From Escherichia coli (GTDB lineage Bacteria; Pseudomonadota; Gammaproteobacteria; Enterobacterales; Enterobacteriaceae): 64,000 bases of DNA. The notes under the pieces were generated by a model. It was not told the DNA's origin. It saw only the letters and a program-made list of their open reading frames with translations, and searched no databases. Each line of letters starts with the position of its first letter. The first letter of the stretch is position 1. The position numbers and the translations under genes are program-made. The DNA lies in assembly GCF_044324875.1 (NCBI RefSeq), contig NZ_CP172185.1; one strand, written 5' to 3'. This document shows positions 1-57,373 of the stretch, piece after piece.

Positions 1-1467
1 TTACTGGTATCAGAAATAGCGCCGTCTTTAACGTTGGTGATGGTACTGGTAGTATCTGTACCATGTGCCGCACTATATGCCTTTTTAAGGGAGTCCCATT
101 GTAACGTATTATTGTCCAGGCCCGTTAAGGCGTCGCCAACAGTGCCGAAAATACCACTTTTCAGCCTGTAATTTGGGGAAGTAACGACGCCTTGCGCATT
201 GACGGTAGCCCCCCCACCAAGATTGTCCGCTACTGACTTACTGATAGCATAAAGCTGTGATCCATTGATGGCATCAGTACTGGTAGTGCTGATATCACCT
301 GCTGCCATATTGACAATTTGTCGCTGAGCTGTTGTGTTACCCACAGAAACAGTATCCGCGTCAGTCGCTACAGAACCAGCACCCAGAGCAACTGAATTTT
401 TCCCTTGAGCACTGGCTTGAGCACCAATTGCAGTGCCATTTTCTAAACCGGCATAACTGCCTTGTCCAAGAGCAATAGCATTTACACCACCTGTAATACT
501 ACCATTACCCAGCGCGATAGCATTTGCGCCGTCAGCTTTATTCCCTTGACCGATGGCAATTGCGCCAGCCGCTACTGCCTGACTTTGATTGCCCAGAGCA
601 ATCGTGTTGTCGACATCTGCAATACTGCCGGAGCCCAACGCGATACTATTAAGTCCATTTGCCTCCGCGTTAGTACCAACTGCCGTCGCATTTTCAGCAG
701 CTTTGCTCTCTGCACCCATAGCAATCGCGTTTGCGGCGCTGGCGGCGGATTGTCTGCCGAATGCGAGGCTGTCTACGCCAGCTGCAGCACTGTTGCGGCC
801 TACTGCAATCGCGTTAGCTGCAGATGCGGCGCTACTTGCACCCAGCGCCATTGCATATTCTTTCGACGCATTAGCCGTGGCTCCGAGGGCGATACTCATA
901 ATTCCTAAGGCCTTGCTTTCACGTCCAAATGCGATGGCGTCATCAGCACCAGTCTCTGCGTAATCCCCTTGTGCAATAGAAAATTCACCTGTTGAGTTTG
1001 CATAACGACCAAGTGCGATTGAAAATCCACCCGTTGACGTTGCCGATGCACCTATAGCGAGGCTTCGCTCACCTGCTGAGGTAGTGTTAATCCCTAACGC
1101 CACTGATGCTTCGCCAAGCGAATGGGTCTTAGCGCCGAGGGCTGTTGACCACCTTCCGTCAGCAGTTGCGTGATAACCTACTGCGGTGCTGGAGCCACCC
1201 CCGGTGTCTGTAAAACTATTTGCTTTTACATCTTCACCGATAGCAACCCAGCCTGTTCCTGTTCCCTGGCCATAATTGACGCCCTGACCGTTGTCCCTTC
1301 CTGCCTGAGCCTGTACCCCAAACGACGACAACATTCCCCCAGCAACCAGAGCAGAAATTAACAGCTTACTGCGCCCGGATTTCTTGCCACGGCTCTTCGC
1401 CGTTTCGCTGGCAACGGTGTAACTGCCCGTCGCCGGATTCCAGATAACTTTAAATATTTTGTTCATT
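1..1467 (-). CDS. Trimeric autotransporter adhesin (YadA-like; UpaG/EhaG/SadA-type), N-terminal part only; C-terminus lies beyond the window start
   Basis: Minus-strand ATG at 1465-1467; translation begins [21 protein letters not shown] (extended autotransporter signal peptide) followed by many Gly/Ala/Ser-rich head repeats (SxALG, NAIAxG); reading frame stays open to position 1. Confidence 0.8.
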
Positions 1468-1509
1468 ATTGATGCTCTCTATTCCTTGATATAAGCGCAG
1501 AAGCTGCAT

Positions 1510-2193
1510 TTATTTTTTGTTTTTTCGCTGCCGAGTTTCAGCAGGTTGAACAGTGTCGAACTGGAGATTGTCCATATTGATGGACAACTTCAGATACTTC
1601 AGGTTATTAGGCGAAACGCCTTTTAATGTCAGATTAATGTCTTGCCATTGGCCAGGCATTAATTGCAGAGTGGAATTCATGGTGGTGTTGAAAAGTAATT
1701 GTTGCCACTTTGCCAGAGCTTTGGCATCGGTGGGTCTTTCATTGCCCCATGTCGCATGAAAGCCAATATTTGATACGGGAACGCTTAAAAGGTTAACCAG
1801 CGAAATACGAATAACACTGCCATTTTCAACCGCATCAATAGCCAGCACCCGGCCTGCCAAACCGACCGATCCGTTATTTAAAATGAAATATTGTGTTTGT
1901 GCTGGGTTAAATTCTGTAAAGACAAATTCGTCCTGCTTGTCTTTAACCGCTTTCACCACGCCAGCGAGCGTCTTGGTACTATTTATGACAGTAGTTTGTT
2001 GTTTTTCAAAATGTTCTATCTTTCGCTTATCGAGTTCCTGCTGTTTCTCAAGCGCCTCAATTTTGCTTTTTTGCAACTCTTGCTGTGTAACGAGGTCGTC
2101 GACCTTACTCGCTTTTTCAATATAGTCACACCCTGCCAATAAGCAGAGAGGCACTATTATTAACACGCTTAACAGTGTTTTCTTTAGGTTCAT
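1510..2193 (-). CDS. Lipoprotein with N-terminal coiled coil, SadB-like putative partner of the downstream adhesin
   Basis: Track ORF 227 aa; signal peptide with lipobox LLAGC; heptad-like Q/E/K-rich segment; stop 1510 lies 42 bp upstream of the adhesin start on the same strand. Confidence 0.6.
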   Translation of the reverse strand: MNLKKTLLSVLIIVPLCLLAGCDYIEKASKVDDLVTQQELQKSKIEALEKQQELDKRKIEHFEKQQTTVINSTKTLAGVVKAVKDKQDEFVFTEFNPAQTQYFILNNGSVGLAGRVLAIDAVENGSVIRISLVNLLSVPVSNIGFHATWGNERPTDAKALAKWQQLLFNTTMNSTLQLMPGQWQDINLTLKGVSPNNLKYLKLSINMDNLQFDTVQPAETRQRKNKK

Positions 2194-2750
2194 AGGATGA
2201 ATTCCTTTTCATAATCCCGATACAGTTGATAATTACGGCACAATCATTTTTTTATGAATGATTAGAGTGGAGCATATCCGACAAATAAATTTGTTAGAGA
2301 ATTTTTGTATTAATTGGTTGTGCGAATATGTTATTAAGTGTCAAACAATTTCGGTTTGTGGCCAATAATATTAATCGCGCGGATTTTAATGATCGGTGTC
2401 AATCAATGTCAAATGTTTCACCGGATAAAGATATAGCGGAGGGAAAGGTAAATATTCAGTTGAGTGATGTTTTATTGCGAAGTTTGCGATGCTGATAGAA
2501 AAATTTAAATAATTAATTATGTTTCAAGCATTGATATGCGGTAATTCATTGTTGATATTGATACATCATTATTTAATTTGTACCTGCTTTTCAGAATTTA
2601 GCCTGCTCCGAGCGCTCAGAAGTGTAGGTGGAGTTGAATATATAATGTTAAGAACGTTACAAATATTCGATCTCTGAAACAGGCTCCTGCATGTGCCAGC
2701 AGGAGCGAGTAAATCGTGAGTGGCTGTAATTACAGCGACGAGAAAGGAAC

Positions 2751-3113
2751 TTAAAACGCAGTCTTAGAGAACCCTGTCATCTCTTGCAGGCCCATTTCGC
2801 GGCCCAGCGCGGTCATTGGGTGCACAACGACCAGTCCGCGAACGCTCTTCTTCAGTTTGCCCATATCAGCTTGCTCTTTTTTAGTAATCGCGCGCTGGAA
2901 CGGCATCTTCATCAGCTTCTGTGCTTCCTTACTGAGTTTCTGGCTGTGAACTTCGCGCAGGCGAGCAATTTCTGCTTCCAGAGTGGCTTTCTCTTTTTCC
3001 AGTTCAGCATATTTGTCTGCGGCTTCAACCAGCGACAGATCGGCCTGCTGGTGGCGGATGGCGTCCAGACGATCGCTGAGACGTTTGATTTCGTTTTTTT
3101 CGACTTCTTTCAT
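2751..3113 (-). CDS. yibL: YibL, conserved ribosome-associated protein
   Basis: 120-aa ORF beginning [23 protein letters not shown]; position next to mtlR/yibT. Confidence 0.8.
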
Positions 3114-3396
3114 GTGATGGCTTCTGATAAAGATAAATTTATAGCCCCTAGTATGCGCGACCAGGTGCTTTATTCACAACTGATGACATTGCAATAGTTC
3201 TATAACGTAAACATTAACATGCTTAAAAACTACGCAATTTATTGATTAATTAAGAAATTTAAAGAAAAAAGATAGTTAACAAAAGCGGATGATTATTGAG
3301 GATTGAGCACGTTTTCCTTAATGTCATTTATACCGGGATCTAAACTAAAATTGGCGGCCGCGCATTCCCGGCGCGGGGTTATACGGAGATATCATC

Positions 3397-4205: not shown

Positions 4206-5353
4206 TATTGCATTGCTTTATAAGCGGTTACCGCCTCGGATACAACCTCGCTGTTGGCATCAAGACCGGAAATCTGTGCCAGCGCCGCCTGCGGACCTTT
4301 GTCAGCGATCAGTGCTGCCAGTTCCTGAGCCTGCGGATCATCTTCACTGCGGAAGTGCATTGCAGCGGCAATACCTTCAATCAGGTTTTTATGTGGCAGA
4401 CCATATTCCAGCGTTCCGAGCAGTGGCTTGATCAGACGGTCGCCAGCACTCAGTTTACGCAGCGGCTGACGGCCTACGCGCTCTACATCATCTTTCAGAT
4501 ACGGGTTCTCGAAACGACCGAGGATTTTCCGGATGTACGCCGCATGTTTGTCTGCGTCAAAGCCGTAGCGCTTGATCAATACTGCACCACTTTCTTCCAT
4601 CGCACCTTTTACCACCGCGCGGATTTTCTCGTCGAGAATAGCGTCACGAATGGTCTGATGACCGGCCAGTTTTCCGAGGTACGCGGTTATAGCATGACCC
4701 GTGTTCAGGGTGAAGAGTTTACGTTCGACAAATGCCATCAGGTTGTCGGTTAACTCCATGCCTGGAATGTTCGGCAACGCGCCTTTGAACTGGGTTTTAT
4801 CAACAATCCATTCGCTGAATGTTTCTACCGTCACTTCCAGCGGATCGTTGGTTGCAGAAGCCGAAGGCGGCACGATGCGGTCAACGGCGGAATCGACAAA
4901 GCCAACGTGTTCTTCTACCCACGCTTTGGCATCTTCCGGCAGGGCGTTCATTACATGGCCTTTCAGCTGCGTGGTGCCGCGTACCATGTTTTCACAGGCG
5001 ATGATGTTCAGCGGGGATTCATTACCTTGTTCTTTACGTTTCACCAGCCCTTTGGCGATTGCCGGGGCAATACGTTCCAGCACAACCGGACCAACGGCGG
5101 TAGTGACTAAATCAACCTGAGCAATCAGATCAACGACATCATCACCAATGCTGCTGACGGCATTGACGCCGGAAACGGTATCTACCTGCTCGGTTTCACC
5201 GACCACATGAACCTGATAGCTATGACGGGCATTCAGGGCATCAAGTACCACCTGATTGACATCGGCAAACGTCAGTTGGATACCCGCGTCTGCCAGCAGT
5301 TTACCGATAAAGCCACGACCGATATTACCTGCGCCAAAATGTAATGCTTTCAT
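4205..5353 (-). CDS. mtlD: Mannitol-1-phosphate 5-dehydrogenase
   Basis: Track ORF trimmed to the internal ATG at 5351-5353 giving [15 protein letters not shown] (Rossmann GxGxxG), 382 aa. Confidence 0.95.
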
Positions 5354-5383
5354 AGTATTAACCTTCATCAATGTTTTTACCCG

Positions 5384-5575
<192 letters not shown>

Positions 5576-5581
5576 ATTGGA

Positions 5582-35723: not shown

Positions 35724-35822
35724 GCCGGATGCGGCTAAAACGCCTTATCCGGCCTACAAATTCTACCAAATTCAATATATTGCAGAAATCATGTAGGCCT
35801 GATAAGCGTAGCGCATCAGGCA
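35724..35822. repeat. REP-type palindromic elements between ysaA and avtA
   Basis: gccggatgcggctaaaacgccttatccggcctac ... gtaggcctgataagcgtagcgcatcaggc. Confidence 0.6.
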
Positions 35823-54421: not shown

Positions 54422-54673
54422 CGCTAAATAATAGAGCAACCTTTAATAATCTTCTGCTGAATAAAGATTGTCTCATATATTAATTTTATGAGATTTTTTT
54501 AGGATTATATCAAGGAGAAGAAACGAACTTATTAAGCTAGAATAGCCACGGGTGCTTGAGACTGTTTGTCTCAGGTATTCACCGAAAGGCAGACAGAGAA
54601 AAGCCCCACCTGACTATAAATCAAAGTGTACTGCACCCATTTTGTTGGACGATGAAATGGAATAGCCCCTGAT

Positions 54674-55195
54674 ATGTCAAAGCCAAAATACCCTTTTGAA
54701 AAGCGCCTTGAAGTCGTGAATCACTACTTCACTACTGATGATGGTTACAGGATCATCTCGGCACGTTTTGGTGTCCCCCGAACCCAGGTCAGGACATGGG
54801 TTGCCCTCTATGAAAAACATGGAGAAAAAGGTTTAATTCCCAAACCTAAAGGTGTTAGTGCTGATCCTGAGTTGCGTATTAAGGTCGTGAAAGCTGTGAT
54901 CGAGCAGCACATGTCCCTTAATCAGGCTGCTGCTCACTTTATGCTTGCTGGTAGTGGTTCTGTAGCCAGGTGGCTGAAGGTTTATGAAGAGCGCGGAGAA
55001 GCTGGTTTACGCGCGCTCAAGATTGGCACCAAAAGAAACATTGCAATATCAGTTGATCCAGAAAAAGCGGCATCAGCATTGGAGCTGTCAAAAGACCGAC
55101 GCATTGAGGATCTTGAAAGGCAAGTTCGATTTCTTGAAACGCGGCTTGTGTATCTAAAAAAGCTGAAAGCCTTAGCTCATCCCACGAAAAAGTGA
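54674..55195 (+). CDS. insJ: IS150 transposase OrfA (HTH)
   Basis: 173-aa ORF MSKPKYPFEKRLEVVNHYF...; slippery heptamer A-AAA-AAG at 55156-55162 in frame near its 3-prime end. Confidence 0.9.
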   Translation: MSKPKYPFEKRLEVVNHYFTTDDGYRIISARFGVPRTQVRTWVALYEKHGEKGLIPKPKGVSADPELRIKVVKAVIEQHMSLNQAAAHFMLAGSGSVARWLKVYEERGEAGLRALKIGTKRNIAISVDPEKAASALELSKDRRIEDLERQVRFLETRLVYLKKLKALAHPTKK

Positions 55196-56455: not shown

Positions 56456-56827
56456 ATGAATAAACTGCTTTTACTGTTGATAATGCTCTATCAACGACAT
56501 CTTTCTCCTCGCAAAGGATACCGCTGTGCTTACAGTGTGTTGTACCAAACGCAGGGATGTTCGGGAGCAGTCAAAGAGATTATTCAACAGAAAGGTGTTA
56601 TTGCAGGCTGGGGCGAGATACGTCAGCGTTTTGCAGATTGCCGACTTGCGGCACAGACAATCAGGCAGAAGCAACACCTGAACGAGGTAATACGTAAAAA
56701 GAAGAATAATAATTGTGATTGTTCCGGGTGCGATGGTGCGGTCTGTCGTGATTGCGACATTCCGGTGCCGGATCTGGATTGTTCCTGGGACTGTTCTTCT
56801 CTACATATAAAGCGTTTTTTCCAATAA
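56456..56827 (+). CDS. YidD-like (DUF37/hemolytic domain) protein with Cys-rich C-terminal tail
   Basis: 123-aa ORF; N-terminal LYQRHLSP...C...KGVIAGWGEIRQRFADC resembles the YidD family pattern; C-terminal CDCSGCDGAVCRDCD cluster. Confidence 0.5.
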   Translation: MNKLLLLLIMLYQRHLSPRKGYRCAYSVLYQTQGCSGAVKEIIQQKGVIAGWGEIRQRFADCRLAAQTIRQKQHLNEVIRKKKNNNCDCSGCDGAVCRDCDIPVPDLDCSWDCSSLHIKRFFQ

Positions 56828-56852
56828 AAAAATCCCCGCCAAATGGCAGGGA
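56826..56852 (-). terminator. Rho-independent terminator of cspA
   Basis: On the minus strand: stem tccctgcc / ggcgggga followed by ttttttt, about 30 nt after the cspA stop. Confidence 0.55.
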
Positions 56853-56880
56853 TCTTAGATTCTGTGCTTTTAAGCAGAGA

Positions 56881-57093
56881 TTACAGGCTGGTTACGTTAC
56901 CAGCTGCCGGGCCTTTAGCGCCGCTTTCGATGGTGAAGGACACTTTCTGACCTTCGTCCAGAGATTTGTAACCATCGTTCTGGATAGCAGAGAAGTGTAC
57001 GAACACGTCTTTAGAGCCATCGTCAGGAGTGATGAAGCCGAAGCCTTTGTCAGCGTTGAACCATTTTACGATACCAGTCATTTTACCGGACAT
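56881..57093 (-). CDS. cspA: Major cold-shock protein CspA
   Basis: 70 aa [38 protein letters not shown] with RNP1/RNP2 motifs. Confidence 0.95.
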
Positions 57094-57373
57094 AGTGTAT
57101 TACCTTTAATAATTAAGTGTGCCTTTCGGCGATATGGCGTGCTTTACAGATTTTGAAGCGTTAAAGGAATGTGCACTACGAGGGGTATCAACGATAACTC
57201 TTGAAGGGACTTGCCTTACTACACTGCTTTAATGGTCTGTACGTCAAACCGTTGATGTGCATTAAGCCACGCATTGGCGGGTGATGCAACAATTATTTTT
57301 CATATTTATGATTAATCGGTTGGAAAACGGTCCTGTCATCAGGACCGTAAACAGCAATAAAGTGGATAAAAGT

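Follow-up and report, generated by a model that had tools for sequence, protein, structure and literature searches.

What does the small gene directly upstream of a trimeric autotransporter adhesin gene in this Escherichia coli chromosome encode, and do the two genes belong together? An earlier note, made from the letters alone, had proposed a coiled-coil lipoprotein resembling SadB of Salmonella and, with the adhesin, a two-gene export unit. We analyzed the 64,000-nt stretch of contig NZ_CP172185.1 that contains the locus (hereafter, the window) and found the gene to be the E. coli ortholog of Salmonella sadB, an assignment made by sequence, fold, and synteny. The two genes and the segment between them are located at one end of the window:

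1..1466, minus strand: 5' part of a UpaG/EhaG/SadA-type trimeric autotransporter adhesin gene, 488 codons (open frame and domain matches).
1467..1509, minus strand: 43-nt spacer, in which the purine-rich AAGGAATAGAGAG at 1475-1487 precedes the adhesin ATG (sequence).
1510..2193, minus strand: sadB ortholog, an intact coding sequence of 227 aa, from an ATG start codon to a TAA stop codon at 1510-1512 (sequence, PDB, BLAST, and fold matches).

The ESPR, YadA head repeats, and stalk identify the product of the downstream gene as a trimeric autotransporter (type Vc). From the ATG at 1466..1464, the reading frame continues without a stop codon through 488 codons up to the window edge; the gene is truncated by the window start, and the N-terminal part alone is visible. 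The ESPR covers residues 1-48 (E=3.7e-16) and is accompanied by a YadA_stalk match (E=6.4e-9) and a long run of YadA_head repeats, at least nine of them at E<0.001. The matches in the Protein Data Bank (PDB) were heads and necks of trimeric autotransporters, namely BpaC, YadA, fragments of SadA, and UspA1. In other E. coli genomes, the full-length orthologs are 4.8-5.2 kb in length and annotated as YadA-like, UpaG, or EhaG.

Between strains, the adhesin was mosaic and the lipoprotein comparatively stable. The head region of the adhesin (window 1-1316) was only ~48-49% identical to the alleles of UPEC F11 and CUWW10, while the ESPR signal peptide was 85-93% identical to the same alleles and the spacer was conserved as well.

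The upstream gene is preceded by the purine-rich AAAAGGAA, 8 nt 5' of its ATG. The reading frame is intact, and its length equals that of most of the homologs, of which 749 were found in the database at E≤0.001. The earlier note had read a lipobox signal peptide and a heptad-rich coiled coil from the translated sequence, and both parts were recovered, followed by a C-terminal domain:

2128..2193, minus strand: type II (lipoprotein) signal peptide, residues 1-22, with lipobox LAGC and a predicted lipidated Cys22 (direct reading of the sequence).
1918..2127, minus strand: coiled-coil stalk, residues 23-92, ~9.5 heptads (heptad register, shuffle test, AlphaFold2 helix, and gap-free alignment to 4C47).
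1513..1917, minus strand: C-terminal beta-sandwich domain, approximately residues 93-215, and a basic tail RQRKNKK (conservation, AlphaFold2, and Foldseek).

In the N-terminus of the protein, MNLKKTLLSVLIIVPLCLLAGC, a short n-region of basic character is followed by a hydrophobic core and by the lipobox leading to Cys22; the next residue, Asp23 at +2, is the predicted inner-membrane retention signal. G21, C22, and D23 were invariant in an alignment of 15 diverse homologs, which were 66-87% identical to the query. Beyond the signal peptide, residues 24-92 follow one continuous heptad register, with no stutter and with only one glycine. The a positions are occupied by Y24, V31, Q38, I45, Q52, I59, Q66, T73, V80, and Q87 and the d positions by K27, L34, Q41, L48, D55, F62, V69, L76, V83, and F90, so that Gln alternates with Ile/Val at the a positions. 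Hydrophobic residues or Gln account for 85% of the a/d positions, a level matched in 3 of 20,000 shuffles of the segment; when Gln is left out, 60% of the positions are hydrophobic, and this was matched in 710 of 20,000 shuffles. The beta domain was far more conserved than the coiled coil and formed the most conserved part of the family in the 15-homolog alignment. An AlphaFold2 model of the monomer, computed from the same number of diverse homologs and of moderate confidence (mean pLDDT 67), contained a single long helix at residues 3-85 followed by the beta domain at residues 102-206.

Within the coiled coil (residues 38-87), we observed a 14-residue motif repeated twice, KIEALEKQQELDKR / KIEHFEKQQTTVIN. 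The pattern of Gln at the a positions aligns with the same repeated motif of Salmonella SadB (4C47).

These properties bear on the simplest alternative, a chance open reading frame or a decayed, unexpressed remnant. Nothing specific speaks for it, beyond the locus probably being silenced in the laboratory (AT-rich DNA lies upstream, and UpaG is reported to be repressed by H-NS; PMC5012682). Against it stand the intact frame of a length typical of the family, a ribosome-binding site at a good distance from the start codon, the strong conservation of the lipobox and the beta domain, and the open frame of the adjacent adhesin over its 488 visible codons. Because of the 749 homologs and the conservation pattern, we rejected this reading and consider its probability negligible.

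We then asked which family the lipoprotein belongs to. A Pfam-A scan of the protein returned nothing significant (the best match, ETRAMP with E=0.22, is noise), and an NCBIfam scan gave no model above its cutoff and sub-threshold matches only. As these two libraries provided no significant family, the assignment was made through a PDB sequence search, BLASTP, and a fold search. With phmmer against all PDB chains, the single strong match was 4C47 (E=1.3e-70, residues 23-227 against 3-207), deposited as "inner membrane lipoprotein" and named "Salmonella enterica trimeric lipoprotein SadB" in the Foldseek library. The BLASTP alignment with 4C47 covered the whole mature protein at 53% identity and 76% positives with 0 gaps. 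A Foldseek search of the PDB with the AlphaFold2 model placed the three 4C47 chains on top, the best with E=1.3e-18. RefSeq names the gene "SadB/YajI family lipoprotein," in place of an older annotation as "DUF3251 domain-containing protein." The proposed likeness to SadB is therefore upheld by sequence, fold, position at the sadB locus, and RefSeq name; a lack of similarity to SadB, which the earlier note had named as the outcome that would speak against it, was looked for, and the opposite was found.

Separately, we observed that the SadB/YajI family is poorly covered by HMM libraries: nearly all database homologs come without a precomputed Pfam match.

The joint RefSeq name also suits a protein of the YajI-type branch of the family that would not be a SadB ortholog. 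YajI was the next Foldseek match after 4C47 (2JWY, E=3.4e-4), and a weak match was found to NF008575, a 183-residue "hypothetical protein" model of NCBIfam that may represent YajI (E=0.005, far below the cutoff). The identity to YajI is ~16%, however, in comparison with 53% to SadB, 2JWY was not among the phmmer matches even at E≤1, and the gene is found at the mtl/lld locus of sadB and not at yajC-secDF / nrdR. On the identity values and the locus, a YajI ortholog was rejected, and we consider membership in the YajI-type branch very improbable.

The position in the chromosome agrees with published descriptions of sadB. In Salmonella enterica, sadB is STM3690, and its product was named SadB by Grin et al. 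(2014, J Biol Chem; PMC3953254). According to that study, Escherichia, Salmonella, and Shigella carry the adhesin gene between the operons mtl and lld, with a small lipoprotein gene directly upstream, 44 bp away in Salmonella; in E. coli K-12, both genes were lost in one 5-kb deletion (PMC3953254). For the first 3.2 kb of the window, identities with complete E. coli genomes reached 98.9%, and the features annotated under the match were "YadA-like family protein," "SadB/YajI family lipoprotein," and yibL. We compared five E. coli genomes (a pig commensal, an ETEC strain, UPEC F11, a wastewater isolate, and O157:H7) and found the gene order lldR-lldP / adhesin / lipoprotein / yibL / yibT / mtlR-mtlD-mtlA / yibI-yibH. 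Within this order, yibL-yibT-mtlRDA are inside the window, and lldP is past the window edge, where it is seen in the near-identical genomes. The adhesin is annotated as EhaG in O157:H7 and as UpaG in other genomes. Using blastn, a homolog of the lipoprotein gene was found in 4,149 of 5,426 complete E. coli genomes, as a single chromosomal copy. The alleles fell into classes by DNA identity, with 448 genomes at ≥99%, 1,131 at 80-90%, and 2,270 at 60-80%; the window allele is closest (≥99% DNA identity) to the group of 448 complete genomes.

The earlier note had placed the lipoprotein gene directly before the adhesin on the same strand, with 42 bp between them (1468..1509). The order and the shared minus strand are as described, and the spacer measures 43 nt (1467..1509), one more than claimed. 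The length of 43 nt was found in five of five E. coli genomes inspected, including O157 with its ehaG. A consensus scan for terminator-like and promoter-like sites on the minus strand found none between or inside the two genes, and folding of the spacer RNA gave a structure no more stable than that of shuffled sequences (z=+1.1).

UPEC F11 has exactly the spacer sequence of the window, next to beta-domain DNA with 80% identity; in CUWW10, 41 of the 43 spacer positions match. A 49-nt query across the spacer was ≥99% identical in 1,797 of the 1,938 genomes in which it was found, and the spacer was identical or near-identical where the flanking lipoprotein DNA was only 77-86% identical to the window. 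In O157, 7 of the 43 positions differ, in line with the divergence of the neighboring coding sequence. With the O157 spacer about as divergent as the coding sequence beside it, the conservation is unremarkable and holds within a single allele group. We rejected unusual conservation of the spacer as a feature in its own right: across alleles, only the 43-nt length and the purine-rich tract are constant. Beyond serving for ribosome binding, the spacer could act as a translational or post-transcriptional control element setting the ratio of helper to adhesin, and SadB alleles could be matched to their adhesins, an idea that we regard as improbable. If SadB alleles did match particular adhesin alleles, the site of contact between SadB and adhesin might be revealed.

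Upstream of the lipoprotein gene, two features are relevant for transcription:

2194..2750, minus strand: AT-rich noncoding region of 557 nt, from yibL to the lipoprotein gene, presumed regulatory (composition profile, ORF map, and RefSeq annotation).
2383..2412, minus strand: candidate promoter, TTGACA, an 18-nt spacer, and TAAAAT, agreeing with the consensus at 11 of 12 positions (consensus match alone).

The GC content falls to 0.31-0.35 in 2194..2750. The candidate promoter is sigma-70-like and near-consensus, is located ~190 nt upstream of the lipoprotein ATG, and was the only minus-strand promoter-like site identified by the consensus scan in 1200-3300; the scan found no terminator-like sites on the minus strand of the same region. 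It is part of a conserved island in which TTGACA is invariant and the second hexamer is TAAAAT or TAGAAT, even in CUWW10, the upstream region of which is otherwise barely alignable to the window. A single transcript of the lipoprotein and adhesin genes from an upstream promoter would fit the consensus scans and the spacing, short of proof. UpaG has been listed among the H-NS-repressed autotransporter genes (PMC5012682), from which we infer H-NS binding and, with it, a candidate promoter that is probably silenced by H-NS.

On the minus strand, ~45 nt past the stop codon of yibL, we also observed a perfect 8-bp GC-rich hairpin with an 8-nt loop (2683-2706, GCTCCTGC ... GCAGGAGC). The hairpin may be the terminator of yibL, separating that gene from the lipoprotein-adhesin unit; it is absent from the list of the terminator scan because the T-run behind it is weak.

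The adjacency of the two genes could be historical. A SadB homolog might be transcribed independently of the adhesin and have a role of its own, for example, a general one in the envelope, as presumed for YajI. Such a reading draws on the paralog YajI being without a linked autotransporter (PMC3953254), on the failure of Grin et al. to demonstrate that SadB and SadA interact directly (PMC3953254), and on a detailed study of UpaG assembly that dissected its biogenesis and never mentions SadB (PMC5670179). The evidence on the other side is broader. The 43-nt spacer is fixed across E. coli alleles with lipoprotein DNA differing by up to ~25%, the consensus scan found no terminator or promoter between the genes, and the K-12 deletion removed both genes together; from the spacing and the co-deletion, Grin et al. 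inferred a sadBA operon (PMC3953254). Coexpression of SadB raised the surface signal and protease resistance of SadA (PMC3953254), an effect seen in both E. coli and Salmonella hosts (PMC3953254, PMC11054257), and an independent study of 2024 found SadA-based display to be approximately three-fold higher with SadB (PMC11054257). Across the Enterobacterales, to which all of them belong, 106 SadB homologs were found beside trimeric autotransporters (2026 preprint). Given the co-loss in K-12, the fixed spacer, the lack of intergenic signals in the scan, and the two display studies, a functionally independent neighbor is unlikely, and we assign this reading only a small probability.

We are confident that the best explanation is a sadB ortholog acting as a helper of the adhesin. 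The product would be exported by Sec and lipid-modified on Cys22, with Asp at +2 keeping it in the inner membrane. It would extend into the periplasm as a trimeric coiled-coil stalk of approximately nine heptads bearing three beta-sandwich (MATH-like) domains. The gene would be cotranscribed with the downstream UpaG/EhaG/SadA-type autotransporter from a promoter in the AT-rich upstream region, and the lipoprotein would raise the amount and the structural integrity of the surface-displayed adhesin. As proposed by Grin et al., it may help three unfolded adhesin chains to join in register in the periplasm; the three beta domains would hold the unfolded chains before their Bam-dependent insertion, a proposal even for Salmonella.

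We infer the molecular properties by analogy with Salmonella SadB, to which the protein is 53% identical. Fractionation and mass spectrometry showed Salmonella SadB to be a tri-acylated protein of the inner membrane, the location predicted by Asp at +2, and it forms a homotrimer with a nine-heptad coiled coil and three beta-sandwich domains like YajI and of MATH/TRAF topology (PMC3953254). On the same grounds, lipidation, an inner-membrane location, and trimer formation are expected for the protein in the window, and an effect on adhesin display is carried over from the Salmonella experiments. The mechanism of assisted trimerization remains a proposal because no direct interaction between SadB and SadA was demonstrable (PMC3953254).

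The feature is real and was correctly read by the earlier note, and the gene is one already described and annotated. A publication of 2014 had already reported the sadBA unit, its location between mtl and lld, its occurrence in pathogenic E. coli, and the structure of SadB (PMC3953254), and the RefSeq name is in use; beyond correct annotation, the finding has little importance. In this strain, an intact helper gene stands beside a UpaG/EhaG-type adhesin gene whose 5' part is apparently intact. UpaG and EhaG are reportedly functional when expressed alone in K-12 hosts, which are without the lipoprotein gene. The helper is probably not essential for the adhesin, as the UpaG assembly study makes no reference to SadB (PMC5670179). 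As Salmonella SadB raised display approximately three-fold, the upstream gene should nonetheless be included when UpaG or EhaG is expressed for display, vaccine, or adhesion work.

Elsewhere in the window, some features were observed in passing. The mtlA-mtlD spacer (5354-5581) contains several REP-like palindromes, for example, GCCGGATGCGGCGT / ACGCCTTATCCGGC; translation through them caused the mechanical list of open reading frames to extend mtlD to 443 aa, while the annotated start is MKALHFGAG at 5353. The length of this spacer varies by strain, with values of 94, 228, 229, and 520 nt. Among RNA families, the sok antitoxin RNA matched at the Rfam gathering level at 54550-54703 on the plus strand (86 bits), which suggests, from the sok RNA alone, a chromosomal hok/sok-type locus. 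The cspA 5' UTR thermoregulator matched near it, at 56826-57253 on the minus strand, again at the gathering level (501 bits), and the ES036 sRNA gave a borderline match at 35758-35800 (38.9 bits; gathering score, 37.6). After aldB, the segment 16624-20621 contains paralogs of yibI and yibH, a LysR-type regulator, and an outer-membrane-protein-like open reading frame, a set that we take to be the yiaW-yiaV-yiaU-yiaT arrangement of K-12. In ETEC1738, otherwise the closest genome, the same point is occupied by a HicAB toxin-antitoxin pair and a pseudogene of a restriction endonuclease; the segment is a variable island.

The protein was also compared with known systems. Eukaryotic TRAF/MATH proteins (e.g., TRAF2, 1CZY) resemble SadB in having a trimeric coiled coil followed by three beta-sandwich domains, and the trimerization-helper model of Grin et al. 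rests on this analogy (PMC3953254). The resemblance is topological only, without a detectable sequence relationship; structures of the MATH-domain protein SPOP were at Foldseek ranks 40 and 44 with E of about 0.02, not significant.

Among bacterial helpers, a survey of the neighborhoods of trimeric autotransporters found no new helper families, and the only other helper described beside a trimeric autotransporter is TpgA, which assists AtaA in Acinetobacter sp. Tol 5 (2026 preprint). Unlike SadB, TpgA is no coiled-coil lipoprotein of the inner membrane. It is an unrelated protein that combines a BamE-like domain with an OmpA-like peptidoglycan-binding domain, presumably binds the beta-barrel, and occurs widely in the Gamma- and Betaproteobacteria (2026 preprint). 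The E. coli paralog YajI (PDB 2JWY) is likewise a lipoprotein and agrees with SadB in the topology of its C-terminal beta domain (PMC3953254). It differs in its low identity of ~16%, in its locus at yajC-secDF / nrdR-ribDE-nusB, and in the lack of a linked autotransporter (PMC3953254).

The SadB orthologs beside ehaG in O157:H7 and upaG in UPEC share the locus, the 43-nt spacer, and the architecture with the gene in the window, and the difference is allelic: the window lipoprotein is 66% identical to the O157 protein, and its gene is ~86% identical at the DNA level to that of UPEC strain F11. Salmonella SadB has the lipobox Cys with Asp at +2, approximately nine heptads, a beta-sandwich, and a basic C-terminal tail in common with the protein studied here, and the coiled coils of both contain a repeated K-I-x-x-L/F-E-K-Q-Q motif. 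Its gene also occupies the same position, upstream of a SadA-type adhesin gene at mtl/lld, with a spacer of 44 bp as against 43 nt here. The partner in the window is a UpaG/EhaG-type allele of E. coli, whereas that of Salmonella SadB is SadA. Between the two lipoproteins, ~47% of the residues differ; the differences are mostly in the coiled coil, and the beta domain is well conserved.
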